From Oculina patagonica (Eukaryota): a stretch of 64,000 nucleotides of DNA. Below are positions 4,980-52,200 of this stretch, one piece after another. Both the position numbers and the translations under genes were made by a program. The stretch covers positions 29,388,001 through 29,452,000 of the forward strand of contig NC_135760.1 in the NCBI RefSeq assembly GCF_052425735.1. Reading direction: 5' to 3'. The notes beneath the pieces were generated by a model. It was not told where the DNA came from and did not search any database. It was given only the letters and a program-made list of their open reading frames with translations. Position 1 is the stretch's first letter. Every line of letters begins with the position of its first letter.

Positions 4980-7900
4980 GATCAGTTTTATACCAAGCTC
5001 AACAAGCTGGCCCTGTTCTTGCACCAAGTGCCCAGGAAATGGTGTCACCTCCTGTTCCACCGCCTCCATTTCAACAACCAGAACCTTTTGTTCCCCCTGA
5101 GGAGCTGGAAATTCCCCCAGAAATGGAGATTGTAAGTATTAGGGGTTGGCATCAGCAACTTGTCATTTAAATGTCGTCAATTTTATATAAATTAATTGTT
5201 GCTGTCTACTAATGTGTGTTGATGTTTATTTCAGAAGTTAGTATAATGCATTTAGTTTTATTAGGGGAACTACCACAGTTTTCTGTTTTGCTTTCGTTTT
5301 CTTGTTAGTAAAAAAACTGAGATTAAATTACAGAAAATGTACATGTTCAATGTTTTTCCCTAAATGTATTTGTCATTTTCGAAAGAGATTGAAAGTTTAG
5401 TATATTTTGATGAAAACATACTGTGGTAAAAGAATAAACTAAAACCTTATTACACCCGCTTTCAGTGTTACTTGCATAGCGGCTTATTGACATCCATCTT
5501 TCAAAATTTGAATTTCGAAATCCGCCAATCACAGCCCACATGCATGACCTTCTGAACTTGTGAGCTTATTTACATGAAACCAACACCAGTATGTATCAGT
5601 ATTGATTGGCCCACTTCAAACAGGACGTTGAAAGAGAGAAAGATGGTGTAGAAAGATAGCTGTAATCGTCATAAAAACAATGGTTTACAATCTTGAACCA
5701 TTGTATAAGAATTACATGTAAAAGAGAACATCACACAGTGATTTGAATAGAGTTTAGCACCAAAAGATATTACACTATGTGAACACTTTCTTCAAAGAAA
5801 ACTTTCAAAACTGCACCAATAAAATATACAGAAATGATGGAATTGAAATGTCTGTGAGTGCTAACCAAATCAAGAAAACAATTTCTTTAAGGAAATTCTT
5901 GTTTCAACAATACTCTGGTAAAACTTCAGGAATCTAAGCAACACTTGTTGTTGCCCAGTTAAGTCTTAATATTTGGATGCGTACATAGCTATACTAACTT
6001 GTCAAGACAGTCTCTTTCTTCAGTAGGAAATCCACTACATACAGTAAGAGGTGCTCATGAGTGGCAGAGACTTCAAATGCAAATGTAATCACATGGACAA
6101 GTGTTTCATTCAGTTTACAATATCTTACAGCTGTGCAATGGTGTGCTCCTTTTAAAACTACAAGCTCACTAGCTGTTATTTCTTTTCTTACTGTCTGTTC
6201 TAAACTGTAGTATCAGTGGTAAATGGCTACATTTTTTGTACAGCTGTAATGATTATTTTTCAATAAGTGAGTCATTTTTTCCATAATTCAGCATTGTCAA
6301 GTTTTCTTATACCTGGAAAGGCCTTTCCTTTGAGTGGACAAGTTGGGTCTACATGTAAATTCATTGTAATGCAAACTAGTACCTGACATTGGTTAAATGT
6401 AATTAAACTGTTTGAGTTGAGATTAAATATTAACAAGCAAAAATGATACATTGTTTATTTTTCACTAAAAGTAAAGGCCTTCTCAGGCATTTAAAATACT
6501 GAGGGATAACTTCTGTTGCAGAAAATATGTGCATGTGGAGCACACGTTTTAAAGAAAGCTGGATGGTCAGAAATGTTAACACAGTCTAAGCTTTCTTTTT
6601 ATTGTGAACTCACATACATGTACTTTTTCTTTCTGGGAATCAGGGTATTTGTTTTAACACTTTTATTACAGACAAACTTGTATTTCTGACTTGCATTCCT
6701 TGTTTTCTCTTCAAACATTTTATACATTATTTTCATACATTCATGACTGTTCAGTAACAAGAATTGAATACTGTATGTACATGAATCTCTTGAAATTAGA
6801 AGAGAAGGCAAATGCAAGTTTGACATGTGGCTGTGTCGTGATCATTAAAGAAGGAGAGTGGTGGACTGGTAATAATGTTATTTCTTCTTCTTTTTCATGT
6901 AGCCTGAGACAGCCAAGATGCAAGCTATCATGGAAAGGACTGCTGTGTTTGTTGCTAAGCAAGGCAAACAAATGGAAATCTTGGTCAAGGCCAAGCAATC
7001 AGGAAATCCTCAATTTGACTTTTTGCTCATCGACAATTGGTTAAACCCTTACTACAAGCATGTCCTGAAATATATAACAGAGGGGAAATATACTCCTGTA
7101 ATACCAAAACAACCATCACCCAAACCCCAGGAAGAAGCAGAACAGAGTGAAAGTGAGGATGAGTCTGATGGAGAGTATGAACTGCATCCATTGCTGCAAG
7201 CGTCACTTCATAAGAAGGTGTCAAGGTCGCAGCCATCATCAGCATCATCATCTCCAGTACCAGATCCTCTTGGTAACAAGTTTAATCGAACTTTTGCTCT
7301 AGTAACAGGATCTTCATCATCAGACACTGCCCCACAGGACAGTGGTCACCATTCACATTATGGCGAGGTGGATGAGGCATTTGATTACAGCATGTGGTAT
7401 CCACAAGGTATGCATGACTTCTTACTCTCAGACAGGACAAAAACCTTGATGAGTTTGTGAGTTAGAGTAAGGTTCAAAAATGTTTTTTTTTTTCCTTTTT
7501 GAATACACATACTTGATGTGTCTCCCAAAAGACTTTCCATGAACATGATTTCAGTTCCTAACAGCTGTGAGTTACTAGGACATGTACATAATTATAATTA
7601 TGTCAAACCAGTTGGCATAAATTTTTGGAAGTTTTCAATATAATCTCAATGTCTGTCCAGTTTTAAGGGAAATGAAGCAACTCAGAGCAAGTATTAGTGA
7701 AAATATTTATACATGTAAAATTGTTGATTGTAAGTACTTTGGACGACTGAAGCTTGTAGTCTAGTTGTTAATATCATTGAACCTCAATTACCTGGAGTCA
7801 AAAACAGGCTGGGTAATACTATTGAGAGTCTGGAATATTAAAAATTGTCCTTTTGTCAAGTTCTGAAGTTTACTACACCCAACGGTATTTGAGATTTTAA

Positions 7901-10900
7901 TTTATTTAGTATAATCTATAAATAAAATATTTTCATATTATTTTCATATCATTTCAGATGATATGTATGGGCACTATGTGTCTTCTGCTGGTTACACTTA
8001 CCACCCCCCTATGGCACCGATTCTGTCAGTAGCTGATATGATTCCACCTCCTCCCCCTCCACCAGGAGAAGGACCCTTGGAAGGTGTGTTACAGTGTATC
8101 CTAGCTATTTTAATAATGAACCCATGCAATAACAAACACAACACCCTTCTATTTTCACTTTAACCACTGAATAATGTAAGAGCTAACATACAATTTGAGA
8201 GTGGTGGCTGTTATTCACTAGGTTTTTCTGTCTTCTTAATCATATAACTTTTTTTCTCCCCTGCGCTGCGGGTTCCCGCACTTCGCCCCCNNNNNNNNNN
8301 NNNNNNNNNNNNNNNNNNNNNNNNNNNNNNNNNNNNNNNNNNNNNNNNNNNNNNNNNNNNNNNNNNNNNNNNNNNNNNNNNNNNNNNNNNNNNNNNNNNN
8401 NNNNNNNNNNNNNNNNNNNNNNNNNNNNNNNNNNNNNNNNNNNNNNNNNNNNNNNNNNNNNNNNNNNNNNNNNNNNNNNNNNNNNNNNNNNNNNNNNNNN
8501 NNNNNNNNNNNNNNNNNNNNNNNNNNNNNNNNNNNNNNCCCCTATAATGAGAGTTGACTGTACTGTCAATGATTTAATGTAATGTTCATTGTGTTTTGAC
8601 AAATCACATGCAGGATCTAAAGACGACAAAACCAGACAAGGAATAGTTTTCCATTGGTCATGGGACAACTTTGGCTCACTTCAAAATGTACCCTCAATCG
8701 TATCTTGCATGTCTTTAATTTTATGTCAAGTTGAATTCCTGTAAGATAAGATAAAGGGAACATTCTGTAATAAAATAAGAACCACAGCTGTTCTGTGACC
8801 TGGTGAAAACAATTATTCATTGTCTGTGGTATTCGGTGGTCTCGAGATCTCATTGCACTTTGTGTAGGTGGTTTTCACAACACAGTGAATGTTCCTGACA
8901 TACATGTGTTTAAAGCATTTAATATGTTTGTATAACTTTGACAGTAAATGTAACTTGCACTATTTTGTAATAACTTTTAATCATTGAAAATAACATTTTT
9001 ACCTTTTTAGCGAATATTATGATCATTGTAAAACATTTAAACTTATGTAATTTTTTATTGTTTGCAGAAGAGTGGTTGGATTCCACAGCATCAATGCCCC
9101 CTTTGCCGCCCCCTCCCCCTCCACCTGTTCCCCCAGTTATGTTCCTTCCCAGCAGTGCTGACTCACCAGTGCCAGTGCCACCAGTGCCGCCAGGAATGTC
9201 TACAATGGCTCCTGTCCCAGATCAAATCATACCACCACCTCCTGACCTTCAACCCATTGTGGATAAGCTGGCAAATTATGTAGCCAAAAATGGTCCCGAC
9301 TTTGAATCAATTATCAAAGCTAAGAATGATCCTCGTTTTGACTTCTTGAACCCATGGAACACCCATTACAGTTATTATCAACTCAAGAAACAACAGGCAG
9401 TGGAAGCTGTTCCACAACAGGCACTTACAGGTACAATGTCAGAAAATTTGAATTCAAACCCTAAAGGAGACCAGTGTGGGTGTAGACCCCTAAAAGATAC
9501 TATTTTTCATGCCTGATTGGTCTAGACTGTAGTATGGCTACTTTTTTTAATTGATGGCTGAAAATATTGGCAGTTTATACCAAACACACTACGAGAGACA
9601 AAAATCTGTAATTTACACCCCAAAGTGAAACAAAAGGTATCCACATCCCTTTTATATGTTTAATATACGTGCAGTGCTGGCACTCTTCTCATCATTAATC
9701 TAGAGTAGTAGGTGTTTCTCAGTCAATGATCTGCTGTTTGCTTTCAGAAAATGTCAAAAGTCAACAGGATGAAGTGTCCAAAGGGCCAATAAGTTTCTCA
9801 ATAAAGGCCAAGGATACAAAGAAACCCAAAATTGAATACCGGACAAGTGTTATATACAAACAGAGTTACGAGCAAGGGCAGAGTGACGAGGATGCTGACG
9901 AAGCAGATGCTGATGAAGCTGAGGACAAGGACACATCTGATGTGAATGGAGGAAATCTGAGCACAAACAAACAGGAGTCTGTAAATAGTAGTCAAGAAAT
10001 GAGTGAGAAGTCAGCAGATGACTTAAACGAGCAGATGGACTCAATCAAGGCTGCTGAGAGAATTGGTATGTACTGTACATGTGGCTTTTTTTCATTACAA
10101 TTGCATTTTTGTCAAAGTTGGTTTATGCTTAGCATGCAATTGCATCCATTTATTTTTGAATGTGTTAAGCAATGTGGAGAGCATAAAGAAACATTAGGGT
10201 TGCATAAGTATATGCTAGCAGATTAGACTCTATACTGGCTAAGATTTGTAGAAAGATTTGGTCACACATTTTCTCCTAAAAGGGTGTATTTTTATTATTC
10301 TTTCTACAGCCCGTCATTTGGAATCAGAGTCCAAAGACAAACAGCTTCAGCTGGAGAGAAGAAGGAAAGCATCGCTTTTCATCAGCATGCTGAAGAAGAC
10401 CAACCCAGGAGAGGAAACTGAAGCAAATGAGTATGATTTCCTTACCAGCTGATTGTTTTCATAAAAACTCATGCATGCATCCATGATCATGCATGATTAT
10501 GCATTCCTCATGTATAAATAGAACTATTCCCTGTAAGAGGCCAGCTGTTATTGATTTCATACTTGTACATGTAGCTCAGTGGTAAAGCATTTGCACCAGC
10601 ATTGCAAGGGCCATGGATTTGAAACTCTTGGAAGGTTGACTATTTTTTCAAGCTTTTATTGCAACTTTTAAAAGCCATGTCACAGTATCTTTGCCCTAAG
10701 GGTCTGTATTACACATTATGTGGGTAGTGTAGGCAAAACTGTGTTTAATCACTGACTCTAAACACACAGCTCTGTACCATGTAATCTATGTAGGTTTAAT
10801 TATTTTTAATACTTGTAGACTGGCCTTCAGAAGTGACTTCCTGTATATAACTTTAATTTTGTAGGCAAAAAGTAGCCTGCCCTTCTCCTTCCCCTTTGAA

Positions 10901-13435
10901 CGCCGGCCACGCAGGCTAGGCAAAAAGCTAAAGAATATTTTCATTACAGGTCTTCTTCTGGGAGTTCTGCACAGGTTAGGAAAACCAGAAAATTCGTGGA
11001 ATCAAAAGGGGATAAACGGTAACTTTGTTGTTTCAGTAGTTCTAAAGATATTTGTAACAGATCAAATGAAAATTTACGTTGGAGAAAGAACTTGTGTTTC
11101 AGGCAAATTACATCACTGGAACAAAGCATTAATGAGCATATATCTGCCATGTGTTTGTGAGCTTGAAGAGATAACTATCAAATAAATGTAATGAACATAT
11201 GCTTTGTTTTCACAAGTTCTTAGTTGCGTACATAACTGTGATGATCTTTTGTGTTTTACATCAGTAACATTAAATTTTGTTGTGAATAATTAAAAGTGCT
11301 GAATCCCTCTTTCAATAATAACAATTGACACAACTGTGACAAGGATAACTATCTGAAATATTTTCTTTCAAAGGAGGTCATTGTTTTAGGGCGTGGCTAT
11401 TGTTAGTAAAAATACTGTTGTTCACTTACCTGTTGCTACTGTATTCACTAGATCCGACTCCCCTGCATTAAAAAGAAGCCGAGTTGACGATGATGAAGCT
11501 GGTGATGAGTCAGTGAGTGGCGGAAGGCTTGGTGTACCATCGCCTGATAGTATCCGTGTTACTCAGGTTAGTGTCTTACAAACACATTACGGGAAAAGTA
11601 TTGGAATAGCAATATTTGATTCAAGGGTGGACAGTTCATAAAGACGAATATAGACGAATGTAACTAAACTGGCATTATTTTTGGCGTAAGGTGTATTGGT
11701 GGTGCCGTGCCCTCAGGAGCCTTCTGTTTAAGATATGCTAACTCCTAGACAATCGTTGAAGACCTGTGATGACTAGATACCGTGTTATAAGACCCTTTTA
11801 ATAAAAGATTATATCTTATATACTTGTCTTATGTATTGGTATCCTTTAGTACATCTTAGCAGTCTGCACATCATCCTCGGAGACCCAGGGGCAGTTAGTG
11901 GGGGCGAAAGAAACGCGAAACTGCGGGCAAAAATAGCGCGAAACTGCGCGCAAAAAAAATTAGCATATATAAAAAGTTGTATTGACTGAAAGTGCCCCTG
12001 GGGAAAGTGTCTTACCAGACCAGTTCAAAAACCTCTCTGAATACTGCCTCCCGATTGGGCAGAAAAATCTTTTGTATTCCCTTTGTATTATTCTGCCCAA
12101 TCGGCGACCAGCCTGACTACAGTCCTTTTGGTGTGTTCCACACGAAATATGTACACAAAGCCAGTTCGCTCGCCATACCTGTCTTGCTTGTTCGCCAAGA
12201 ATTTGCTCGGGAAGGAAAAGTTTCGGCTAGTGCCTCCTCAACTTGGGTGTGAAGTGTCGGGAAAATTTTGTCTTCGGGAAATATGACCGTCATTTGAGTG
12301 CTACAATTGGTGCTGCACGCATTACACGCGCGCGTAGCTAATCGGTCGATCGACGGAAAAATTTTACAAAATGTAAGGTCTTGAAAGTTTGTTTGGAAAT
12401 AGTTTTTGACTTACTAAAATATTTAGCTTGATGTAACTTAAAACACATTGTTATTTTAATTTATTACTATGATATTCGAAGTTATCTTTCTTATTACTAT
12501 CTTTTCTTTAATGTAGATAAGGAATTTCCTTTTTGTAACTTTATTTATTTATTTTTTCTTCTTCATTTTCTTCTTACCTCCCGCCTCAAATAACTAGGCT
12601 AATTGCGGGAGGTGAAAAATATTGTAAATAATATGATTGTTTAAATAAACTTTTTGTTGTTGTTGTAGTTTCGCTTCCAGCTGCGATCGATCTTCTATTA
12701 TCTCACCTATAAAAAACTTAGGAATCGCTGCTGCACGCTTTGCACGCGTAGCTTATCTGCCGGGCTCGTTCGTAAAAAAATTACTCTTGTTTGGAAAAAT
12801 TTCGCGTAAAGCTGTCATTGATCTTCCCAGAAAAAATCTGAAAACACCCATTACAGCAGTGCAATTAGCATATCGCACACAAACTTTTAAAACTCGCAAA
12901 CGATCGACGATCGACCACAATATGAAGAATCTGCCGTTTGTCCGCGTGCATGGCCGTCAAACTTTCGACGTTTTCAACCAGGGGAGGCACTAGCCGAAAC
13001 TTTTCCTTCCCGAGCAAATTCTTGGCGAACAAGCAAGACAGGTATGGCGAGCGAACTGGCTTTGTGTACATATTTCGTGTGGAACACACCAAAAGGACTG
13101 TAGTCAGCCTTGTCGCCGATTGGGCAGAATAATACAAAGGGAATACAAAAGATTTTTCTGCCCAATCGGGAGGCAGTATTCAGAGAGGTTTTTGAACTGG
13201 TCTGGTAAGACACTTTCCCCAGGGGCACTTTCAGTCAATACAACTTTTTATATATGCTATTTTTTTTGCGCGCAGTTTCGCGCTATTTTTGCCCGCAGTT
13301 TCGCGTTTCTTTCGCCCCCACTAACTGCCCCTGGGTCTCCGAGGATGTCTGCACATGTACAGTACATTAGAATAATCCCACCCTTTATTCCAGGATTTAA
13401 CGGCAAAGGTGTTGGCTGCTTCCAGAAATAAGTGA
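4980..13435 (+). CDS. SFSWAP: Splicing factor, suppressor of white-apricot homolog (5'-partial, 8 exons in window)
   Basis: Phase-consistent GT-AG exons 4980-5131, 6903-7407, 7958-8083, 9068-9430, 9748-10065, 10310-10430, 11452-11566, 13394-13435. They encode [52 protein letters not shown] (SURP1), [41 protein letters not shown] (SURP2), [16 protein letters not shown] and C-terminal [16 protein letters not shown]. All match SFSWAP motifs as I recall them. Confidence 0.93.
6903..7407 (+). CDS. SFSWAP: SFSWAP exon with first SURP (SWAP) domain
   Basis: tag|CCT GAG ACA acceptor and CAAG|gtatg donor; ORF track 6918-7460. Confidence 0.92.
8291..8538. other. Assembly gap (N run)
   Basis: 248 Ns flanked by C runs. 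Confidence 1.
9068..9430 (+). CDS. SFSWAP: SFSWAP exon, Pro-rich region and second SURP domain
   Basis: cag|AA GAG acceptor and ACAG|gtacaa donor; ORF track 9019-9516. Confidence 0.92.
10873..10918. mobile_element. 46-bp minimal MITE with 9-bp TSD
   Basis: tagcctgc...gcaggcta inverted ends flanked by direct ggcaaaaag (10864-10872 and 10919-10927). Confidence 0.7.
11872..13347. mobile_element. Non-autonomous Mutator-like (MULE/foldback) element with ~365-bp TIRs
   Basis: Near-identical inverted arms 11872-~12237 and ~12982-13347 (mirror ORFs in the track); 9-bp TSD tctgcacat on both sides. Confidence 0.85.
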
Positions 13436-34200: not shown

Positions 34201-37200
34201 ACTATTTAATTACTTACGCAAGAAATTAAACAAAAAAAAACATTAAACTGTATCTAAGCAGTCAGTCGACATTTCAGTAATATTTTGTTACTGACGTCTG
34301 CCGCACTTGTTGCTTTTCCCACATAGCAACCATTTATTTAATTACTTACGCAAGAAAATAAACAAAAAAAATTACTGTAACTAAGCAATCAGTCAAAATT
34401 TCATTAATATTTTGTTATTGACGTTTGTCAGTAACATTTCGTCACTTAAGGCCGCGCTTTTTTCTTTTCCCACATAGCAACCAATTATTTAATTACTTAC
34501 GAAAGAAAATAAACAAAAACATTCACTGTAACTAAGCAATCAGTCGAAATTTCAGTAATATTTTGTTCCTAACGTCAGTCAAGTAAGACTTTTTTACTTT
34601 AACGATTTTAGCTTTTACAAAAATATTTACTGTAACTACCTCATTATAGGAAAATAACGTTCCATGAAATTAACGAGAATTTTAAAAATTGTCGTTAATT
34701 TAAGTCGCGTTAATTTTTGTCAGCGTTAATTTCCTTGACATTAATTAGGTGAAGCGTTGATTTCCGCGACATTAATTTCCATCCTGTCCAGGCATAGTCG
34801 ACTTTCTCTTTTCTGCAAACTGTATTTACTTGTATTTCGATCTTTACGATATTTCCAGTTCATGCCTGCTTTCAGAAGGACAGTTGGACATCTAACACAT
34901 CCTCTTCCTATGTTTTCGGCAAAAAAGTTCAATGTTGAAATATAATTTGTTCTTATTGTCGCCAGAAACTGCGCTTCCTTGTGTTAATCGAGTTAATTAC
35001 TTCATTTTTAAAATTTACCTCCTCTTTCGCGTTAATTTCCTTTATTTAGAAGTACACTCTTTTTTTCTATAGGAATAATGTTTTTTTCTGGCCCAGGCTG
35101 AATATTCTTATTTTTCTGTCGATGTTAGGTTGAAAGTATTGTTATGAATATTCTTAGATTATAGCCTGTGTCATTTCTGTTTGTGCTATATACCATACAT
35201 ATGTATTACATATACCGTTCATCGAACTAGCATCGGAAGTAGTGAGGAAAGGACCGAATTAGCCGTTCCCATGGGCAGGAATTGGGCAGGAATAATTAAG
35301 TAGGTGACGTCATAGTGCGTAAGTGACGTCATCAAAAATGGGGCGTAAATGACGTCATAAAATGGGGTGCAATCTAAAAATAGAAAAATTACATCATCGG
35401 TTGTAATCTAAAAATAGAAAAATTACATCATCGGGTGTAATCTAAAAATTGAAAAATTACGTCATTAGGGTGTAATCTAAAAATAAAAATTACATCATAT
35501 CGGAGGGTAACCCCGCCTTGACCAATAGCCATAAAAGAAGCTGCTTGTAGTTCAGTCTATTCTCAGAGTTTACACCGTTCAGATCACAATGTACAGCAGT
35601 TATAATCAATTCTTTCAAGAGGGTTATGGAAATATCATATTACCCGATGACAGTGGAGATGAAAGCGATGATGAGAGCTCACAGGAAAGTGAACAGTCAT
35701 TTAGTCAAGATTCTCAATCGAGCGAAGAAATAGACTCTTCCCAAGAACAAATGGAGCATATAGATCCCTGGTCGCGCATTCAAGATGAAGTCACTAGTCG
35801 TCACGAAGCCAAGCTCGAAACTCTGATAAACGAGTATGAACAACATGGAGATGTGTCTGAAGTGGCCCGTGTTAAGGCTGAAAATGCTCTGCTACCAGTA
35901 TACAGGAAGGAGCTGAGAAAAGTTCTTTTGGAGTATTTACAGTGGATGCATGCAATGAAGAAAGATTCGACCTTCCGTAAAGTGATAGAGACCAAAAATG
36001 AATTGAAAGATACAGAGGGATATGATTGGTTAGAATCGACAGAACTCGCTATCGATAAGCGAAAATTCTTACTCAATCGGTTGTTTGTCAAACAAACTGT
36101 TCCCGAACACTAAGTGAACTGTGCCTGTTAATCTTTTCTGGTGACACCTCTGTCAATGTTTTTAATAATCAATAAACGTATTTTAAAAGAGAAAAAACCT
36201 GTTTGTTCCTTCTTGTGTCTCGCGGTGCGCAACTTGTCTATATAAACGCCTATAGATGCTAATTTCTTAAGCAAACTCCACCAAGTTTATACCGTAATTC
36301 GCTTAAATGCTCATACGCGTTCTCTACCGTTTGAATTAAGATAAAACCAAACATGTGAAACATAGGTTTACAAGTCAAAAAAGTTGTACATTGATCAAAT
36401 TTTTTTCACAAAATCGGTTCACTGAGCTGGTCTTACAATTTATTTTACTCGTAACTGCTCAATAACTCCATATTGCCAATGTAGTATTGCCGTATTGGCC
36501 GCTACGAATTTTTTGCTGTTTGTAATAATTGCTATTTGATTTTCTTGGTTGCTCTTTGTCACTCAACTGGTTAAATGATTTATTGATCTTATGAACTTAA
36601 CGTAATAAGAAATTTTGAAATGGAAAACTTTTAGAAAGTTTTGACAGTAAGAAAGTTTACTTTAAAGAAATGTAAATGAACTGTTGACAGGTTTGAGTGT
36701 GAATTTTTCGCTCCGATAATAACCCTTGGGAAAAGCATGTTAGTAATGCCTTTGTGTTAAGCGAAACCCCTAATTCTGGAAAAGTTTAATGAATTTTTAT
36801 GAAGTAAATAATAAGAGTTTTTTAAAGGAAATAAACTGAAGAAAATCACTTAATTTCCTCTTTTAATACACTGTTATTTATACAATAGCCGTTGACATTA
36901 CATTCTTTTAAACAAAGATTGCAAAAACAGACTTAAACCTATATGTCCGTGTCATCCAACAGCAAATGTTTATGCAAAAACATTACAGAGAAAGCCACCG
37001 TGGATGTTGAAGTGTTGTTATTTTAGACCGTTTGCTAGTCTTGTCTGTTTTTCGAATGCTTTTACTTCTGTTTTTCAATAAATCCTTTGATTTTCTTGGT
37101 GTGGATAACTGGTAGTTAATGTCAATGCCTTGTTGTTGAATAGACGGAGGTATGGTACACGCTTTAAGTTTTTGGCTGTTCTCAGTGTTTTGATAGATGA

Positions 37201-40200
37201 TTACTTTAACTTTAGGTTGTAGTTTTGCTTCTTGTAGCCACTTTCTTCTTTGATTGTGATCCAGCTGATGAACATTAGTAAGATGGTTAGATAATTTCAC
37301 GAGATATTTTGCTCCACATCCCGGAACCGGACAGTCTCGGCAAACTCTTCTAACCATGTTAACGGCATGAAATATTGACGCAAATGAGAGAGTTTTGTTA
37401 ATATCCTTGTGTTATATAGACGCTACTGAAGGTCAAAAAGGACAAAATGAGGTCAAAAAGGACAAAATAAGGACAACAAGGACAAAACAAGGACTAAAAG
37501 GACAAAAGGAGACACGAGGGACATTTAAGCTATATGTTTCGCTGCAAACGCGCGTGGAGAACGCGCGTGGAGAGACGCGTGCATGACATTCAATAAAAGT
37601 TTTTTTTCTTATCTACGTAACTGATCACTGATAAAAAACCAAAATAATTAATAATTTAATGATAAAGGAAATCTCAAATTCCCGTTTAATGTATATTCCC
37701 AGGAAAGATAGCAATATGTCTACTGTTCTTGTTTTTCTTTCGCTCATATTAGCGTATTCCAACGCCTGCTTAGAGGGAAAATGTCGGTGCTATGAAGCGT
37801 TGGAGCTTATCGACTGTTCTCACATTGGTCTGTATTCGATGCCACATGCAAAGTCTATCATGGTAAACTACACTTCAATTTTACTGCGTGGTAACAATCT
37901 TCGAAACCTCAATCTAACCGCTATTTTGGAAGTGTTCCCGCGACTTGTACTTCTTGATTTGAGAGAAAACAATAAGCTATTATGCGATGATTTACAACAA
38001 TTCCACAACTTTAAGCCGATTATTATAATAACAAAGGCGCTCTAGGCAATTACTACAGCATGTGGAGATGGAATTGACAATGTTAAGCACTGATCATGAT
38101 GAGGAGATCATTTTCTCTCGCACAACGGAGATGTGGATCACTCTTGGAGCTTATGCAATCACACACAAATGTAATTAACGAAATCGTATTTCAATAAACA
38201 ATGAAACGGAAACAACAGTCTCTGTCATGTTTGTGTTCCAGAAACAAAACCGAACAAAACCTTTATCTGTGAACTACATATTCACATCTCCGTTGTGCGA
38301 GAGATGTGAATATGTAGTTCACAGATAAAGGTTTTGTTCGGTTTTGTTTCTGGAACACAAACATGACAGAGACTGTTGTTTCCGTTTCATTGTTTATTGA
38401 AATACGATTTCGTTAATTACATTTGTGTGTGATTGCATAAGCTCCAAGAGTGATCCACATCTCCGTTGTGCGAGAGAAAATGATCTCCTCATCATGATCA
38501 GTGCTTAACATTGTCAATTCCATCTCCACATGCTGTAGTAATTGCCTAGAGCGCCTTTGTTATTATAATAATCGGCTTAAAGTTGTGGAATTGTTGTAAA
38601 TCATCGCATAATAGCTTATTGTTTTCTCTCAAATCAAGAAGTACAAGTCGCGGGAACACTTCCAAAATAGCGGTTAGATTGAGGTTTCGAAGATTGTTAC
38701 CACGCAGTAAAATTGAAGTGTAGTTTACCATGATAGACTTTGCATGTGGCATCGAATACAGACCAATGTGAGAACAGTCGATAAGCTCCAACGCTTCATA
38801 GCACCGACATTTTCCCTCTAAGCAGGCGTTGGAATACGCTAATATGAGCGAAAGAAAAACAAGAACAGTAGACATATTGCTATCTTTCCTGGGAATATAC
38901 ATTAAACGGGAATTTGAGATTTCCTTTATCATTAAATTATTAATTATTTTGGTTTTTTATCAGTGATCAGTTACGTAGATAAGAAAAAAACTTTTATTGA
39001 ATGTCATGCACGCGCTCTCTCCACGCGCGTTCTCCACGCGCGTTTGCAGCGAAACATATAGCTTAAATGTCCCTCGTGTCTCCTTTTGTCCTTTTAGTCC
39101 TTGTTTTGTCCTTGTTGTCCTTATTTTGTCCTTTTTGACCTCATTTTGTCCTTTTTGACCTTCAGTAGCGTCTATATAACACAAGGATATTAACAAAACT
39201 CTCTCATTTGCGTCAATATTTCATGCCGTTAACATGGTTAGAAGAGTTTGCCGAGACTGTCCGGTTCCGGGATGTGGAGCAAAATATCTCGTGAAATTAT
39301 CTAACCATCTTACTAATGTTCATCAGCTGGATCACAATCAAAGAAGAAAGTGGCTACAAGAAGCAAAACTACAACCTAAAGTTAAAGTAATCATCTATCA
39401 AAACACTGAGAACAGCCAAAAACTTAAAGCGTGTACCATACCTCCGTCTATTCAACAACAAGGCATTGACATTAACTACCAGTTATCCACACCAAGAAAA
39501 TCAAAGGATTTATTGAAAAACAGAAGTAAAAGCATTCGAAAAACAGACAAGACTAGCAAACGGTCTAAAATAACAACACTTCAACATCCACGGTGGCTTT
39601 CTCTGTAATGTTTTTGCATAAACATTTGCTGTTGGATGACACGGACATATAGGTTTAAGTCTGTTTTTGCAATCTTTGTTTAAAAGAATGTAATGTCAAC
39701 GGCTATTGTATAAATAACAGTGTATTAAAAGAGGAAATTAAGTGATTTTCTTCAGTTTATTTCCTTTAAAAAACTCTTATTATTTACTTCATAAAAATTC
39801 ATTAAACTTTTCCAGAATTAGGGGTTTCGCTTAACACAAAGGCATTACTAACATGCTTTTCCCAAGGGTTATTATCGGAGCGAAAAATTCACACTCAAAC
39901 CTGTCAACAGTTCATTTACATTTCTTTAAAGTAAACTTTCTTACTGTCAAAACTTTCTAAAAGTTTTCCATTTCAAAATTTCTTATTACGTTAAGTTCAT
40001 AAGATCAATAAATCATTTAACCAGTTGAGTGACAAAGAGCAACCAAGAAAATCAAATAGCAATTATTACAAACAGCAAAAAATTCGTAGCGGCCAATACG
40101 GCAATACTACATTGGCAATATGGAGTTATTGAGCAGTTACGAGTAAAATAAATTGTAAGACCAGCTCAGTGAACCGATTTTGTGAAAAAAATTTGATCAA

Positions 40201-43200
40201 TGTACAACTTTTTTGACTTGTAAACCTATGTTTCACATGTTTGGTTTTATCTTAATTCAAACGGTAGAGAACGCGTATGAGCATTTAAGCGAATTACGGT
40301 ATAAACTTGGTGGAGTTTGCTTAAGAAATTAGCATCTATAGGCGTTTATATAGACAAGTTGCGCACCGCGAGACACAAGAAGGAACAAACAGGTTTTTTC
40401 TCTTTTAAAATACGTTTATTGATTATTAAAAACATTGACAGAGGTGTCACCAGAAAAGATTAACAGGCACAGTTCACTTAGTGTTCGGGAACAGTTTGTT
40501 TGACAAACAACCGATTGAGTAAGAATTTTCGCTTATCGATAGCGAGTTCTGTCGATTCTAACCAATCATATCCCTCTGTATCTTTCAATTCATTTTTGGT
40601 CTCTATCACTTTACGGAAGGTCGAATCTTTCTTCATTGCATGCATCCACTGTAAATACTCCAAAAGAACTTTTCTCAGCTCCTTCCTGTATACTGGTAGC
40701 AGAGCATTTTCAGCCTTAACACGGGCCACTTCAGACACATCTCCATGTTGTTCATACTCGTTTATCAGAGTTTCGAGCTTGGCTTCGTGACGACTAGTGA
40801 CTTCATCTTGAATGCGCGACCAGGGATCTATATGCTCCATTTGTTCTTGGGAAGAGTCTATTTCTTCGCTCGATTGAGAATCTTGACTAAATGACTGTTC
40901 ACTTTCCTGTGAGCTCTCATCATCGCTTTCATCTCCACTGTCATCGGGTAATATGATATTTCCATAACCCTCTTGAAAGAATTGATTATAACTGCTGTAC
41001 ATTGTGATCTGAACGGTGTAAACTCTGAGAATAGACTGAACTACAAGCAGCTTCTTTTATGGCTATTGGTCAAGGCGGGGTTACCCTCCGATATGATGTA
41101 ATTTTTATTTTTAGATTACACCCTAATGACGTAATTTTTCAATTTTTAGATTACACCCGATGATGTAATTTTTCTATTTTTAGATTACAACCGATGATGT
41201 AATTTTTCTATTTTTAGATTGCACCCCATTTTATGACGTCATTTACGCCCCATTTTTGATGACGTCACTTACGCACTATGACGTCACCTACTTAATTATT
41301 CCTGCCCAATTCCTGCCCATGGGAACGGCTAATTCGGTCCTTTCCTCACTACTATCGGACATTTGGCTCATGCAGGTTTTTATCGTTTTATTGGCTAGTT
41401 TTGCCGTTTAGAGAAAGGACGAATTTTATACGATCTAGATAAAACATATAATTTTATTGTATTTACATATTTTCAACACACAAAATTATATTCCTTTCCA
41501 ATCTCAGCCTCGGGTTTATTCTTAAAATATTCTTAAAATTTCGCAAAGAAAAAAAAAGGTGCAGGTTTGCCTCCAATTCGCGTTAATTTAATAAGGAAAG
41601 CAATCAACAGCAAACACTAAAAATTATGGCAAATAACACTAAACACTAAACCCCATTCAGACTCTCACATTACTATGGCCTTGCAGAAATGCTATGCCGT
41701 CATGAACAAAAAACATCAATATATTACATCCATTTACACAAAAATAGCGATAAACGATGATAATAACTGCAGACTATGGTAGGGTATCACTCATCATGAA
41801 GGAAAAAACTACCCTGACTTGTCACTGACCACAATGGCAAGTGTTGAACTTGCCGTGAATGTGCCACAGTAAAGTGTATCAAATTTATTTTGAAGACCGC
41901 GAGTTTTCTTCTGATCATTACTTAATTCTTATTTCTACAATAAAATATTGCTGATACCAAATCAAGTTTTCAAAACTAGGAGGCACCCAAAAAATTAACA
42001 TTTTTCCACTCTCTAACTTACAAATGAAATATTTCAATTTACCAGAACACTTTTTTAATGAATTTGCCAACCCTACTTACAATACTAAAACGGAATGCAA
42101 TTTATTACAACACACTTCTTATTATACTTACCCAGCTACTTGTACTACAATACAGCTACCTTACTCCAATTACAATACTTATCATCGCTACTTACATCAT
42201 TTACAACACAATTACACAATTACATCTACAGTCACTTCCACTTCCGTACAATTTCGTTCCGTGCTGCGGATAATAATATAATTAACGCAGGATGAAATAG
42301 CTCACATTACATTTTATATGACTAAATTTAAATACTTTGTTTTAAAGAATAATTATTTGGCTACTCAGAGGAGTTACATAAAAAAACTTTGTAAACTCTC
42401 TGTATATTTTTCCTTTTAAGATTGTGGCTGTCTTCATGATTTTTTTATTTCTTTCTTTTGATGTTTTGAATTTACCAAAACACGCACAACTTTGCTACGG
42501 CCTAATAAGGCTCGTAAGCCTAATTGTTTAGTTAATTTTTATATATAAAATTTATGTATATTTTTGTACATTTTCCGATTACGATACCCAACTGAACTAG
42601 CTATGTTTTTTAGTAATGTCTCATTAGAATCGTTTCCTCAGAACACGGATGAACGTTAGGTGTTGTTGAGCTGGGTCTGTCTGGATACACAGTCCTATTC
42701 TTCTATCAGTACACTGTGGCAGCTCACTGGTGTCTTGCTGGAAAGCAAGACGGCGCTCTGGCATTACTTGATTCATAGCTCCAACTCGTCTGCTTCTGGG
42801 TTTCATTTGATCATCTCTCGCCTTCTGCTGCTGATTGGTAGCGTTTTGATGCTTTTCTGTGCTCGGTTTGTTGTCGCGTGGTTCATTTTGTTTTGACACT
42901 GTTAGTTGTTTGAGGTGTCTGCCACTTGTTCCACTCTTCACTGTGGTTTTTCTTCGTCTTGTTCCAGGATCTGCCAACGCATGGGGTGCTAAGCACTGCC
43001 TGTGAATCATACTGCCATCTTTCAACGCAATCCGTCCTCCACTTCTCTCGGTTTTCTCTTCAACATGGTTTGGACGCGCTACGGACTGTTTCGTTGTTAC
43101 CCTTTTGGCTTGCTGAGGTTTTCGTTGTTGGCCTTGCGGGTTTGTACATTGTGAGACTTGACGCTGTGTAGCTCTGTGGCAGTGGACATCAGTTTGTTTC

Positions 43201-46200
43201 ATCTTCTGGGGAAGAGCAACACGAACTAACTTGCTTGGTGACCGTGACTGCCGGGTTTGTCGTTCATTAACTGGTGGCAAATGCGTTGAATGCGATTTGG
43301 AATTACTGAAAGACGAAGGATTTTTATAGCCCTTCTTGAACGGAGGATTGGAGGCAACTTTCGGTGGTTCTTGCTCTTCAACAAGAAAGCGTCCATTTCT
43401 TCTTTGGTAAACTTCACACGACTCTCTCGTCGACAGTGGTTTGGATTTTCGACTCATTTTTGGGGTACGTTTGTTGTTGTACAATTGATGTTCTCTGTTC
43501 AGTTCTGTCAAGAGATTGTTAGTTCTAATGTGTTTTTCGTGGTTCCTATATATTCTCATTTGAACACAAGCACGTCACCTTCTTTGGTGTACGTGTCGCT
43601 TCTGACGTAACATCGCTCTCAATTGCACCATTATTCGCTAGTCTTTTTCGACGTGAGTCTTGTGTTTTCCTCGGTTACCGCATGGCAGCCAACTGTTTAG
43701 CAATTTACGCAAAAATAAACAGAAGCATTTCTTGTAACTAGGCAAGCGACCGAAATTTCACTAATATGTTTTTATACTGACGTCAGAAACATTTCGTTAC
43801 TTAAGGCGGCGCCTTTTACTTTTACCACATAGCAACCAAATATTTAATAACTTACGCAAGAAAATATACGAAAAATATTTACCGTTACTAAGCAATCAAT
43901 CAAAACGTCAGTTATGTTTTGTTATTGACGTCAGTAACTTCTCGTTACTTTGGCTTCGCCTTTTGCTTAAACCCCTGGAAACCAACTATTTAATTTCATA
44001 AAAGAAAAAACATTTACCGTCACCAGGTAACTGATCAATCCTTTAATTGTTCGCTCGATCTGGTTATTAATAAACGGTCGTCTTTTTATTTATTCACTCA
44101 CTGATCCATCCAACCACCCACCCGCCCGTCCGTCGACCTTTCGTTGATTGGATGGTTTGGATGGTTCGTATGTCCTCGTTCGTTCGTTCGTACGTTCGGT
44201 CGGTCGGTCTTTGGTTCTTTGCTTCGTCGGTCGGTCGGTCGGTTGGTTGGTTGGTTCGGTCGGTCGGTCGTTCTTTGCTTCGTTGGTTGGTTCGTTCTTT
44301 TTTGCGTTCGTCGATGGAGCTAGCCAGTCAGTAGTCATTCAGAGGATCAGTCCATCACTGTGTACTTACCCAATGATCTGCAGTGGTGTCCCTTTACGCC
44401 GCGTGTTTTTTACAGCAGCCGCTTTAACAACAGTGTCTTCAGTGATACTTGTTGTGGTGGCCGCAGGCAACAAAAAGAAATAGCTGGAAACCTTAGAAAT
44501 AAAAACAATGTGTAACCTTTTATACGGGTAAAGCGCGTTCATTGATTAAGGTTTTGCTGCAGAACATGCTTCAATGTTTGGGCGTAAAAAACAAACACAA
44601 CGACAAACAAATGGCAAAGAAACAACACCATACACAATACACACACAAACAGCAAAACTATGTTTTTATCATTACTGTTGCAAAGTAAGATTCTGGTTCC
44701 TTCCTCTCGCACAGGATCAATGTGGCCTCCCGATACACGAATTCAGTCTTATGAGTGAAAAAGGATAAAGGTACTACAGTATCTACACTGCAACTGCTCC
44801 CCTTGACCTCCCCTTGTACGTTGATGGAAAGTGTAACAGAAGCTACTGTTGAATAACTGACTGACTGATTGAAAAATCTGTGCTTCTTTATCTGTACGCA
44901 CTTCTACATGTAATCTATATTCAAATTGTTTATGGATGACGCCCATATTTAATTGTTTTGCCAACATTTTTCAAGTTAGCCGTTCGCAATTTGTTTCAAT
45001 ATTCCTCATTAATTGTGACTTAAGAGGTAACACTTCAAGTAGATAATAAAGATTTTACTAAATCTTACTATTTTCTCAAGTGATAAAGCCTTAGAGTTTA
45101 CATGACGTCTCTCCAGAGGCACCAATCGATCAACGTAGTTAGCCAGGAGCATGTCAGTAACATGCATTCGAAGCCACGTGGGACTACACGTCTCCAAAAA
45201 CCGCTTTAGTGTAACCTCGCTTTCATGGAGCCGGCCACAGGCCAGATACAGTTCGGTCACAAAGGTTCGCGAGCGTTCACTCAACCTGGTGGCCAGATCT
45301 TCTTCGGTACACTTCATGGAAACGAGGTCACAAAGAATGAAGCATTTAGCTGCCATAGCAACAACACTTTGAAGAGTTTGCAAGGCGGTAATCTGAAGAA
45401 ACAAAAGTATCAACTTTAGATGCATTTTCCCGGGTGAAACCTGGGTCAACCTTCTTGCCTTGTTATGGTTTAGGAACGTACACACCGACATATTATATTC
45501 GCGATAAAATGTTTACGCCAACTGCGAGCTTCGGCCAATTTACTTGGTGAAGCTTCTGAACGCCATTCGGGATTCGTTTATATTTTTGTATACAAAATTT
45601 TTACAAAGAAATCACTGATATCACACACCTAGAGCAGGAAGTTTGGCAAGCTGACACGGATTTTATTTCACAATTGCAAACATTTTGGGAAAAAGTAAGA
45701 AGATTGCCATTATTTGTCAGACTTCCACGCATTGTACAGTCCCCTATGCGGCTGTTATTAGGGTCGGGGAGGACAGTTGGGTTGGGTCGGGGAGAAGCGT
45801 TCAGTGAAGACCCAAATTACGGCTTGAGGAACCCTAGCCGTGATTGAAAATGGAATGATTTTGGCTTCTGATAGGTCGGAGATCAAAAGATGGGGCGTGA
45901 AGAGGAAAATCTCGTCAGATCTTTTGTAAATAAAACTAAATCTAGATAAAGTTTGGTTGCATACATATGTTCAAACTATAATTTAAGAATTTTTTAACTT
46001 AACATTACATACTATACCGTATTCAGACCATCTACACACAGATAAGCAATCCATCTTAACGACAAGCTCTCACGGCTTTGCTTTCTTTCCGATTAATGAG
46101 CACATCGGACATTTGGCTCATGCAGGTTTTTATCGTTTTATTGGCTAGTTTTGCCGTTTAGAGAAAGGAGAATTTTATCGATCTAGATAAAACATATAAT

Positions 46201-49200
46201 TTTATTGTATTTCATATTTTCAACACACAAAATTATATTCCTTTCCAATCTCAGCCTCGGTTTATTCTTAAAATATTCTTAAAATTTCGCAAAGAAAAAA
46301 AAAGGTGCAGGTTTGCCTCCAATTCGCGTTAATTTAATAAGGAAAGCAATCAACAGCAAACACTAAAAATTATGGCAAATAACACTAAACACTAAACCCC
46401 ATTCAGACTCTCACATTACTATGGCCTTGCAGAAATGCTATGCCGTCATGAACAAAAAACATCAATATATTACATCCATTTACACAAAAATAGCGATAAA
46501 CGATGATAATAACTGCAGACTATGGTAGGGTATCACTCATCATGAAGGAAAAAACTACCCTGACTTGTCACTGACCACAATGGAAGTGTTGAACTTGCCG
46601 TGAATGTGCCACAGTAAAGTGTATCAAATTTATTTTGAAGACCGCGAGTTTTTTCTGATCATTACTTAATTCTTATTTCTACAATAAAATATTGCTGATA
46701 CCAAATCAAGTTTTCAAAACTAGGAGGCACCCAAAAAATTAACATTTTTCCACTCTCTAACTACAAATGAAATTTTCAATTACCAGAACACTTTTTTAAT
46801 GAATTTGCCAACCCTACTTACAATACTAAAACGGAATGCAATTTATTACAACACACTTCTTATTATACTTACCCAGCTACTTGTACTACAATACAGCTAC
46901 CTTACTCCAATTACAATACTTATCATCGCTACTTACATCATTTACAACACAATTACACAATTACATCTACAGTCACTTCCACTTCCGTACAATTTCGTTC
47001 CTGCTCGGATAATAATATAATTAACGCAGGATGAAATAGCTCACATTCATTTTTGATAAATTTAAATACTTTTTTTAAGAATAATTTTCTACTCAGAGGA
47101 GTTACATAAAAAAATTTAAACTCTCTTTTTTTCCTTTTAAGATTTGGCTTCTTCATGTTTTTTTTTTCTTTCTTTTATTTTAATTTACCAAAACACGCAC
47201 AACTTTGCTACGGCCTAATAAGGCTCGTAAGCCTAATTTTTAGTTAATTTTTATATATAAAATTTATTATTTTTTTACATTTTCCGATTACGATACCCAA
47301 CTGAACTAGCTATTTTTTAGTAATGTCTCATTAGAATCGTTTCCTAGAACACGGATGAACGTTAGGTGTTGTTGAGCTGGGTCTTCTGGATACACAGTCT
47401 ATCTCTATAGTACACTTGGCAGCTCACTGGTTCTTGCTGGAAAGCAAGACGGCGCTCTGGCATTACTTGATTCATAGCTCCAACTCGTCTGCTTCTGGGT
47501 TTCATTTGATCATCTCTCGCCTTCTCTGCTGATTGGTAGCTTGATGCTTTTCTTCTCGGTTTTTGTCGCGTGGTTCATTTTGTTTTGACACTGTTAGTTG
47601 TTTGAGGTGTCTGCCACTTGTTCCACTCTTCACTGTGGTTTTTCTTCGTCTTGTTCCAGGATCTGCCAACGCATGGGGTGCTACACTGCCTGTGAATCAA
47701 CTGCCATCTTCCGCAATCCGTCCTCCACTTCTCTCGGTTTTCTCTTCAACATGGTTTGGACGCGCTACGGACTTTTCGTTGTTACCCTTTTGGCTTGCTG
47801 AGGTTTTCGTTGTTGGCCTTGCGGGTTTGTACATGTGAGACTTGACGCTGTGTAGCTCTGTGGAGTGACATCAGTTTTTTCATCTTCTGGGGAAGAGCAA
47901 CAGAACTAACTTGGTGACCGTGACTGCCGGGTTTGTCGTTCATTAACTGGTGGCAAATGCGTTGAATGCGATTTGAATTACTGAAAGACGAAGGATTTTA
48001 TAGCCCTTCTTGAACGGAGGATTGGAGGCAACTTTCGGTGGTTCTTGCTCTTCAACAAGAAAGCGTCCATTTCTTCTTTGTAAACTTCACACGACTCTCT
48101 CGTCGAAGTGGTTTGATTCGACTATTTTTGGGGTCGTTTTTTTGTACAATTGATGTTCTCTTTCAGTTCTGTCAAGAGATTGTTATTCTAATTGTTTTTC
48201 GTGTTCCTATATATTCTCATTTGAACACAAGCACGTCACCTTCTTTGGTGTACGTGTCGCTCTGACGTAACATCGCTCTCAATTGCACCATTATTCGCTA
48301 GTCTTTTTCGACGTGAGTCTTGTGTTTTCCTCGGTTACCGCATGGCAGCCAACTGTTTAGCAATTTACGCAAAAATAAACAGAAGCATTTCTTGTAACTA
48401 GGCAAGCGACCGAAATTTCACTAATATGTTTTTATACTGACGTCAGAAACATTTCGTTACTTAAGGCGGCGCCTTTTACTTTTACCACATAGCAACCAAA
48501 TATTTAATAACTTACGCAAGAAAATATACGAAAAATATTTACCGTTACTAACAATCAATCAAAACGTCAGTTATGTTTTGTTATTGACGTCAGTAACTTC
48601 TCGTTACTTTGGCTTCGCCTTTTGCTTAAACCCCTGGAAACCAACTATTTAATTTCATAAAAAGAAAAAACATTTACCGTCACCAGGTAACTGATCAATC
48701 CTTTAATTGTTCGCTCGATCTGGTTATTAATAAACGGTCGTCTTTTTATTTATTCACTCACTGATCCATCCAACCACCCACCCGCCCGTCCGTCGACCTT
48801 TCGTTGATTGGATGGTTTGGATGTTCGTATGTCCTCGTTCGTTCGTTCGTACGTTCGGTCGGTCGGTCTTTGTTCTTTGCTTCGTCGGTCGGTCGGTCGG
48901 TTGGTTGGTTGGTTCGGTCGGTCGTCGTTCTTGCTTCGTTGGTTGGTTCGTTCTTTTTTGCGTTCGTCGATGGAGCTAGCCAGTCAGTAGTCATCAGAGG
49001 ATCAGTCCATCACTGTGTACTACCCAATGATCTGCAGTGGTGTCCCTTTACGCCGCGTGTTTTTTACAGCAGCCGCTTTAACAACAGTGTCTTCAGTGAT
49101 ACTTGTTGTGGTGGCCGCAGGCAACAAAAAGAAATAGCTGGAAACCTTAGAAATAAAAACAATGTGTAACCTTTTATACGGGTAAAGCGCGTTCATTGAT

Positions 49201-52200
49201 TAAGGTTTTGCTGCAGAACATGCTTCAATGTTTGGGCGTAAAAAACAAACACAACGACAAACAAATGGCAAAGAAACAACACCATACACAATACACACAC
49301 AAACAGCAAAACTATGTTTTTATCATTACTGTTGCAAAGTAAGATTCTGGTTCCTTCCTCTCGCACAGGATCAATGTGGCCTCCCGATACACGAATTCAG
49401 TCTTATGAGTGAAAAAGGATAAAGGTACTACAGTATCTACACTGCAACTGCTCCCCTTGACCTCCCCTTGTACGTTGATGGAAAGTGTAACAGAAGCTAC
49501 TGTTGAATAACTGACTGACTGATTGAAAAATCTGTGCTTCTTTATCTGTACGCACTTCTACATGTAATCTATATTCAAATTGTTTATGGATGACGCCCAT
49601 ATTTAATTTTTTGCCAACATTTTTCAAGTTAGCCGTTCGCAATTTGTTTCAATATTCCTCATTAATTGTGACTTAAGAGGTAACACTTCAAGTAGATAAT
49701 AAAGATTTTACTAAATCTTACTATTTTCTCAAGTGATAAAGCCTTAGAGTTTACATGACGTCTCTCCAGAGGCACCAATCGATCAACGTAGTTAGCCAGG
49801 AGCATGTCAGTAACATGCATTCGAAGCCACGTGGGACTACACGTCTCCAAAAACCGCTTTAGTGTAACCTCGCTTTCATGGAGCCGGCCACAGGCCAGAT
49901 ACAGTTCGGTCACAAAGGTTCGCGAGCGTTCACTCAACCTGGTGGCCAGATCTTCTTCGGTACACTTCATGGAAACGAGGTCACAAAGAATGAAGCATTT
50001 AGCTGCCATAGCAACAACACTTTGAAGAGTTTGCAAGGCGGTAATCTGAAGAAACAAAAGTATCAACTTTAGATGCATTTTCCCGGGTGAAACCTGGGTC
50101 AACCTTCTTGCCTTGTTATGGTTTAGGAACGTACACACCGACATATTATATTCGCGATAAAATGTTTACGCCAACTGCGAGCTTCGGCCAATTTACTTGT
50201 GAAGCTCGACGCCATCGGGATCGTTTTTTTTTATACAAAATTTTTACAAAGAAATCACTGATATCCACACCTAGAGCAGGAAGTTTGGCAAGCTGACACG
50301 GATTTTATTCACAATTGCAAACATTTTGGGAAAAAGTAAGAAGATTGCCATTATTTGTCAGACTTCCACGCATTGTACAGTCCCCTATGCAGCTGTTATT
50401 AGGGTCGGGGAGGACAGTTGGGTTGGGTCGGGGAGAAGCGTTCAGTGAAGACCCAAATTACGGCTTGAGGAACCCTAGCCGTGATTGAAAATGGAATGAT
50501 TTTGCTGATAGGTCGGAGATCAAAAGATGGGGCGTGAAGAGGAAAATCTCGTCAGATCTTTTGTAAATAAAACTAAATCTAGATAAAGTTTGGTTGCATA
50601 CATATGTTCAAACTATAATTTAAGAATTTTTTAACTTAACATTACATACTATACCGTATTCAGACCATCTACACACAGATAAGCAATCCATCTTAACGAC
50701 AAGCTCTCACGGCTTTGCTTTCTTTCCGATTAATGAGCACTTGTCAGGGGCGGATCCAGGATTTTTCAAAGGGGGGTGGCTGTTTACCAAGATTTTTTTT
50801 ACTATCTTTTTAAGCTCCAGGTTTTTTATGGGGGTGGGGGATGGGGTATCAGGCTTTTAGACAGGTTTTTGAAAGTGGGAAATCGAAATTATTTCGGGCC
50901 TGAGACCCATGTTTCATGGGGCCGTAGGCTCCTTTCCCTAGTGGGGTATGGGGGCATGCCCCCTCAGAAAATCTTGAAAAATTGAAGCCTGTAAGACGTA
51001 TTTCCCATCTGAGCAGCTTTAAACAACTTTCAATTAAGTTATTAAACCGTTATTTGGCAAAATTATTCTTTCCTCAACTTACCTTGAATTATAATTTGGG
51101 ACAGAAACTCTAGTTCTTATGAAAGTGATTGAAATTTGAAGTTGACAAGCCACGAACTTACACGAAAGAACAGATATGCGTTGTTTTGCTCCCCCACGTG
51201 CGTGGAAATTTTAAGCTCTTGGCAAAGTGGCCAAGGGAATTTTGGTAAGTGAGTTTTTAGAACAGCGGTTTTGCTTGCGAAGAAAACGGTAAGAAAACCG
51301 CGTAAAAGATTAATATGAAGAAGAAAATCATGCCAGCAAGGCTAAAACAACTCTTGAAAGGTAAAATGTTTTAAAATTATACACAAATGTTTTGTTACAT
51401 TAAACACAGAAGTTCGTAAAACAGGCTGTCGAAAATCTCCTATGTTGGAAAAGTGGCCGTCCTTAACTTTGAACAGCCGCCTGGCTAAGGAAGGTGGATG
51501 TTAACAAATATGTCAAATTTACTTTAGCTAAAAATATTACCCAGTAACACTTTTTTCACCTTACCCAGTGTCATTGTCCTTATTTTCTATTTTAATGTGT
51601 TTATTTTCATTTTTCTGGTGGATCAAGGGGGGTGGCTAGCCACCCAATCCACCCCCCTGGATCCGCCCCTGCTTGTTACTCACCTGAGATGGATCGTCGC
51701 GTGATGAACAAGCCGCGCTCCAAGTGACCCTGAACAGCTCACGCAGTCGAGTGTTAAAGGAGATTGATGAAGGTCCCGGCCAAAACATTCGCCACAGCAG
51801 TGAATTTTTCAGGCAATTTAATTTTTCTCTAGGAGTGGTTGAAACGCTGTAAAAATAGTGAAAAATTATAAAAGGCTAACAACGGTTGGCATGCAACGAT
51901 TTCGGCATTATTTCATGTAAGAGGTTCATAAAACTATTAATATTGTTGCGCGCGTATTTCTAAGCTTGGCACCGATTTTAAAACAGCTTTTGCCTTCTAG
52001 TTCTTATTACCTTAAGGTTACTATTGTTAGCGGCTACTAATTTTAGCGATTTTAGCGAGTTGGGCAAAAATCGCCAAATTTAGTGCTCGCTAAAATTTGT
52101 TTCGGTCAACTTTAATACTTGCTCAATTTAAATACACCCCTCCCACCCCAAAGGGAAACAAAATTAAGCATAGTCGACTTAAAAAATTCTTTTAAAAATA

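Follow-up and report, generated by a model that had tools for sequence, protein, structure and literature searches.

A 6.1-kb palindromic element with Polinton-type ends in Oculina patagonica is probably a non-autonomous Polinton satellite

Polintons (Mavericks) are recognised by an (AGT)2 or (AG)3 terminal motif and a 6-bp target-site duplication (TSD), by genes for polymerase, integrase, ATPase, protease and capsid, and by a size of about 13–25 kb. That they replicate by way of free, protein-primed linear molecules is a model, and we know of no direct demonstration of it in an animal. Hairpin or palindromic derivatives of protein-primed replicons include the yeast pGKL hairpin plasmids, the palindromic mini-genomes of phi29 and the symmetric adenovirus minichromosomes. 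Very long inverted arms around a variable spacer are typical of Foldback/Galileo, whose TSD exceeds 6 bp and whose ends are of the transposase type, and of palindromic non-autonomous cut-and-paste elements. The N in the name Polinton-1N1_DR stands for non-autonomous. That name occurs in a passage of PMC9341505, and passages of PMC8097293 give intact vertebrate Polintons a length of 12.7–24.6 kb and inverted repeats of 46–1,447 bp. Here we describe an element in 64,000 nt of Oculina patagonica (contig NC_135760.1, positions 29,388,001 to 29,452,000; this whole stretch is called the window, and plain coordinates are counted from its first letter). The element occupies 35238–41353, is 6,116 bp long, runs from AGTAGT to ACTACT and is a palindrome almost from end to end. 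We consider it probable, from comparison with its relatives in the same genome, that it is a non-autonomous Polinton satellite, copied by the protein-primed polymerase of a helper and inserted by the helper's integrase.

The element and its insertion site comprise the following features.

35232–35237, plus strand: left 6-bp TSD, ATCGGA (alignment; empty host-repeat copy in L112)
35238–38290, plus strand: left arm, 3,053 bp (alignment)
38291–38300, no strand: loop of 10 nt, CGTTGTGCGA, at the joint of the second fold-back; its closing stem, TCTC/GAGA (4 bp), is native
38301–41353, minus strand: right arm, 3,053 bp, reverse complement of the left arm (alignment)
41354–41359, plus strand: right 6-bp TSD, ATCGGA (alignment)

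Global alignment of the two arms shows 0 substitutions and two 1-nt indels: the left arm lacks a G after 37575, and a T-run near 37600 has one surplus T. All 4 runs compared do carry the G, so this indel may be an assembly error and the arms might agree throughout. The empty form is represented by a host-repeat copy on C2 (in L112) that matches both flanks collinearly, about 16 bp apart and at 83–87% identity, from which it follows that the element is an insertion. The 3 kb of complementarity, the TSD and this empty copy together exclude a chance origin. The longest open reading frame (ORF) within the element is 192 codons, stop to stop, and the 4 arm ORFs scanned gave no Pfam match to a polymerase, integrase, ATPase or capsid. 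A preliminary description of this DNA had given the palindrome, its arm and loop lengths, the two indels and the TSD, and had claimed Polinton-type ends, integration as a unit and the absence of core genes; base-by-base alignment, the empty host-repeat copy and the ORF scan bear it out on all of these. It had omitted three small ORFs, each present twice, and the 25 bp at 38114–38138, which repeat the centre in inverted form.

With Polintons the element shares (AGT)2 ends, a 6-bp TSD, terminal inverted repeats and a zinc-finger-like ORF that also occurs in full-length elements of this genome, but it is 6.1 kb long, its 3,053-bp inverted repeat makes up essentially the whole of it, and the five core genes are missing. 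Like non-autonomous Polintons it has helper-type ends without enzymes: its ends are related to those of full-length Polintons in the same genome, its family shows independent insertions with different 6-bp TSDs, and as it lacks enzymes we infer that it is mobilised in trans by helper proteins. Features that may set it apart from other non-autonomous Polintons are concerted arms, symmetric terminus swaps and genes under selection. Hairpin derivatives and copy-back defective genomes likewise are self-complementary, fold back at short inverted matches (here the final joint has weak read support) and have two identical origins; unlike those, the element is integrated and inherited with TSDs, is not collinear with one helper end in an incomplete helper census, and belongs to a natural lineage that has a gene of its own. 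Foldback/Galileo have its very long inverted arms and variable spacer in common, but not its Polinton ends and 6-bp TSD, and the arm-to-arm recopying described below would not be expected of cut-and-paste movement. Palindromic Polinton derivatives are not described in passages of PMC8097293, PMC11131425, PMC6431247, PMC3014272 and PMC9341505, or in titles and abstract openings, while Kapitonov and Jurka 2006 or Repbase may already hold long-armed non-autonomous forms; nor was a primary paper on hairpin derivatives of protein-primed replicons found by title or abstract opening. According to passages of PMC11131425, a coral Polinton survey required hallmark genes and a long loop between the repeats, so that palindromic elements of this kind would go unreported, and surveys that depend on hallmark genes miss this class of element.

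The centre of the palindrome becomes legible by comparison with relatives at C1:42.19 Mb (5,288 bp long and flanked by a TSD of its own) and C4:33.22 Mb, in which three segments stand in the native order A-X-B. Segments X and B lie in the window as follows.

38114–38138, plus strand: segment X, an inverted copy of 38280–38304; first fold-back joint, 7-bp AGATGTG/CACATCT
38136–38282, minus strand: segment B, length about 150 bp, orientation opposite to that in the native order (C1:42.19 Mb, C4:33.22 Mb); two copies here, a single one in the C8 element

In the native arrangement CACAT or CACATCT comes after B and can pair with the complementary AGATGTG that ends X. The window has A, X, inverted B, inverted X and the loop, followed by the mirror image, and the C8 copy has a single B with a deletion on either side. 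Both joints lie at inverted microhomologies, of 7 bp and 4 bp. The native A-X-B joint is present in run X9, and the centre joint had no public match in metagenome_contigs. A fold-back origin of the centre had been proposed from the window alone, and the native order in the relatives, which exposes the inverted joints, supports it.

Four elements were compared for arm symmetry, using the first 2,350 bases of each arm. Left and right differ within an element at 0/2203, 1/2219, 2/2172 and 5/2343 columns, whereas the four elements diverge from each other by 1.2–5.5%, and 127 of the 135 variable gap-free columns are symmetric. That the arms are alike within an element yet differ between elements indicates that they have been recopied from each other. 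Between the C8 element and the window there are 29 differences within the first 184 columns and a single one in the approximately 2,000 that follow, and the C8 terminus, which is of another kind, sits at both of its ends; patches of 10–20% divergence in the C10 element are also found on both arms. In older copies (C4b, C4c) the arms are only 89–92% alike. We suggest from these comparisons that arms are made equal no later than insertion and diverge from then on, and arm divergence could then date insertions, as long terminal repeats do.

Relatives were collected by a search with one arm (40 of 135 candidates scored), followed by terminus and protein searches; candidates were chosen for paired matches, and all counts therefore describe a sample and not the genome. 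A single arm finds paired inverted matches on C8, C4, C10 and elsewhere. Thirty-two elements could be delimited, among them a full-length Polinton and the palindrome described here; the 6-bp TSD is perfect in 29, mismatched at 1 base in one and lacking in two, and the paired arms take up from 4% to nearly 100% of element length. The closest relatives are 5.3–5.6 kb long, with arms of 2.4–2.7 kb and spacers of about 170–390 nt. Lengths of 5.1–5.8 kb, a possible sign of a constraint on size, are found, despite different contents, in 13 of the 29 elements under 10 kb, although these elements are related and were found through 10-kb windows, and six later ones (1.1, 4.1, 4.3, 4.3, 5.0 and 8.6 kb) lie outside the count. 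Full or near-full palindromes with other termini are located at C7:24.56 Mb, C8:13.34 Mb, C6:26.16 Mb, C12:24.09 Mb and C8:10.98 Mb, and palindromic copies with different TSDs, whose existence had been predicted, were thus found at several loci. Two distant palindromes of another terminus type (C7 and C8) have one tight centre in common, which suggests that full palindromes spread as units. The elements on C10 and at C3:16.94 Mb have the same centre joint in opposite orientation, with different arms.

The 7.6-kb palindrome at C8:10.98 Mb (L131:1199–8766) does not stop at AGTAGT: it continues for about 870 bp, and its outermost ends are of another type. An element on C1594 (L053:4252–4438) is only 187 bp long, consists almost solely of two termini and has its own TSD; it represents a minimal cis unit.

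Each arm contains a terminus module and three small ORFs.

35238–35504, plus strand: Polinton-type terminus module, AGTAGT end and subterminal repeats; mirror copy 41087–41353
35589–36113, plus strand: acidic ORF, 174 aa, with a disordered acidic N-terminus and a predicted helical domain; mirror copy 40478–41002 (minus strand)
36983–37357, minus strand: zinc-finger-like ORF, 124 aa, with a CxxxxC...H...H motif; mirror copy 39234–39608 (plus strand)
37659–38045, plus strand: leucine-rich-repeat (LRR)-like ORF, 128 aa; mirror copy 38546–38932 (minus strand)

The acidic ORF lies within arm positions 268–1264 and the zinc-finger-like ORF, whose motif we take to be of that type, within 1274–2353, followed by the LRR-like ORF. 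The arm is a mosaic, and its modules derive from different elements. For the acidic ORF there are 109 genomic matches and 509 database relatives; nonsynonymous differences are proportionally fewer than synonymous ones (pN<pS) against 5 of 5 copies, and by this measure the ORF is under purifying selection. For the zinc-finger-like ORF pN<pS holds in 5 of 6 pairs, a weak constraint. The 128-aa ORF is likened to secreted leucine-rich-repeat proteins (Atlas feature score 0.94) and has no Pfam match, and the closest named homologues of one arm protein are stony-coral proteins. The acidic ORF gave 0 Pfam matches as a query, with weak scattered ones only among 68 aligned members of its family, no Atlas match and no solved relative at E<0.05; its predicted model (predicted template modelling score, pTM, 0.43) was matched by nothing in PDB or BFVD in a Foldseek search (E≤0.001), and 222 pattern matches to the family in viral_contigs yielded 0 confirmed members. 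Only 1 of its 109 genomic matches lies within 15 kb of a listed polymerase locus; at least 206 such loci are listed, a lower bound obtained from the best 76 of 716 and the best 134 of 506 candidates scored. Many of these Polinton-type polymerase loci sit in long open frames.

Two Polintons of 14.3–14.5 kb on C5 carry ends related to those of the window element, with 91–93% identity to the arm over 180–260 bp of terminus and nothing beyond arm position 261. One of the two has Pfam matches to an A32 ATPase and an rve-chromo integrase and a 1,454-aa ORF with polymerase-like motifs, and lacks the last approximately 28 bp of its right end. Two Polinton relatives of 15.2 kb have no DNA-level match to the arm. 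Homologues of the zinc-finger-like ORF sit between polymerase and ATPase in full-length Polintons; the acidic and LRR-like ORFs were not found in the four Polintons of 14–15 kb or in a 12-kb derivative on C1318. The exact 24-bp end of the element is restricted to 6 small elements, and the terminus had no match in public viral_contigs. Full-length Polintons sharing these termini, which the preliminary description had anticipated, thus exist in the genome, but none of those examined shares the first approximately 2.9 kb, the match ending at position 230 or 261. Its account of the element as one end of a Polinton folded back does not hold, as only 230–261 bp are common to full-length Polintons, the arm is a mosaic and the centre required two fold-backs, and the supposed fresh defective genome belongs instead to an established, gene-bearing family.

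Other Polinton derivatives were encountered in the same searches. The one on C1318 (13438–25608; L036, L037) is 12 kb long, with 3.1-kb arms and ATPase- and capsid-like ORFs, and is nested within another Polinton. Elements at C14:13278908–13290565 and C235:118874–129695 have AGTAGT ends, lengths of 10.8–11.7 kb and arms of 2.0–2.4 kb, and their only long ORFs resemble parts of a polymerase. Four small elements of the same terminus type as the window element bear an A32-like ATPase, two by Pfam match and two by likeness to those; these (L073, L074, L075 and L076) are 3.5–7.5 kb long, and their ATPases have an N-terminal zinc-finger-like motif.

We suggest that the helper's protein-primed, strand-displacing polymerase would copy the element and the helper's integrase would insert the copy. 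The palindrome may have arisen in two steps. In one round of synthesis the growing strand would have switched at the 7-bp inverted match around B and doubled back over the arm; the product would be a near-palindrome whose spacer measures about 155 nt, the form that may lie behind the C8 copy and the X5 and X6 contigs discussed below. A later round could then have folded at the native TCTC/GAGA stem with its 10-nt loop, giving the full palindrome. A displaced strand of such an element would fold on itself to form a duplex that has a complete origin and in which one arm could template or correct the other, so that mutations and swapped termini would enter both arms together and the arms would grow at the expense of the interior. 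Such a snap-back duplex would account for the symmetric mutations, the symmetric terminus swaps, the flipped spacers and the growing arms. According to passages of PMC11886824, panhandle formation with restoration of homology is the standing model for protein-primed replicons, including PRD1 and adenovirus.

Contigs of the runs that contain the stretch, several of which are labelled coral metagenome, bear on whether the perfect centre is correctly assembled. The X1 contig is unbroken over 37496–38306; it crosses the first joint and the loop and ends 2 letters past the point at which the spacer form diverges, which is too little to count as bridging and supports the final joint weakly. X1 also bears other arm alleles and therefore probably represents a different copy. 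Its higher word share (0.96 vs 0.93) was rejected as support for the joint, as the missing words could be the joint itself, and its coverage gap at 36792–36903 was discounted as evidence. A head-to-tail duplication of 4.75 kb starts exactly at the right TSD, 41354–46103 being repeated at 46104–50740, and the second copy, aligned over 4,636 columns, shows 17 substitutions and some 75 small deletions. The repeat at 46104, considered as a possible empty site, was rejected as the second copy of this tandem duplication. The duplication at 41354–50740 resembles long-read sequence left unpolished where an insertion is heterozygous; it is probably a local assembly artefact and possibly a real rearrangement at the element end. 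That the element itself is artefactual seems improbable.

A number of observations weigh against a palindromic satellite with a perfect centre. Among the pieces listed, no contig bridges the loop (by a 31-letter rule) or either insertion junction, and the X5 and X6 contigs stop matching at 38304, as the spacer form predicts. The perfect centre was found once among the candidates scored in the genome (10 of 10), the error-rich duplication abutting the right TSD makes local assembly quality doubtful, and polishing could make arms appear more alike than they are. The polymerase ORF of the helper has no Pfam match and was assigned by motifs alone, and passages of PMC11886824 state that direct evidence for panhandles is still lacking. 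It is conceivable on these grounds that element and family are real but that the perfect centre is a fold-back chimera of assembly or library, the true locus having a 155-nt spacer. Read depth over B, about half that of the adjoining arm, the single B of the C8 copy and the placement of the duplication all fit such a chimera, and self-priming at 4-bp hairpins is known in vitro. We nevertheless regard it as unlikely, since the X1 contig runs unbroken over the X/B joint and ends with 2 junction-specific letters, other loci are full palindromes, two of which share a tight centre, and the unique flanks are collinear with the empty site, which a mirrored read does not give.

The symmetry could instead have been made by the host after insertion, through repair of a hairpin or cruciform or through chromosomal gene conversion between the arms. 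Long inverted repeats are substrates for repair, the duplication adjoins the element, and the C8 palindrome extending about 870 bp past its AGTAGT ends is one case in which symmetry oversteps the termini. In most copies, however, symmetry ends exactly at AGTAGT, with a TSD; older copies have diverged rather than homogenised arms; and the same centre joint is seen at separate places in the genome (C10 with C3:16.94 Mb, oppositely oriented; C7 with C8), which leaves a host process quite improbable. Hardly any weight attaches to the idea that one end of a full-length Polinton snapped back on a single occasion and that the resulting defective-interfering genome then integrated once. The fold-back joint at the centre and the terminus common to full-length Polintons would agree with it, but the acidic and LRR-like ORFs are absent from the four Polintons of 14–15 kb and the C1318 element, acidic ORFs are hardly ever found near the listed polymerase loci, the arm modules come from different elements, and many relatives have their own TSDs. 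We therefore favour the non-autonomous satellite, copied and inserted by its helper.

If so, the recopied arms, the symmetric terminus exchange and the fold-back joints resolved to the base may be genomic footprints of a free linear intermediate, and they would predict free snap-back DNA of 5–6 kb. A more tentative thought, which we hold to be possible but rather doubtful, is that animal Polintons have a satellite class of their own akin to P4 and the phage-inducible chromosomal islands (PICI): hairpin-prone linear replicons of 3.5–9 kb with their own conserved gene, some with their own A32 packaging ATPase, swapping termini on both arms to change helper, perhaps packaged, and many about one third of the helper's length. 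We point out that kilobase-scale palindromes are likely to be fragile sites for the host chromosome and for assemblers alike.

Elsewhere in the window, a 1.5-kb element at 11872–13347 has near-perfect inverted arms of about 370 bp and other ends. Dispersed 1-kb repeats with ORFs starting MSRKSKPLS, together with arrays of units of about 148 bp, flank the palindrome at 17.6–34.6 kb and 42.5–48.7 kb. Exon-like frames of a host gene lie at 6903–10223, the first of which presumably resembles a SURP/SWAP splicing-factor domain.

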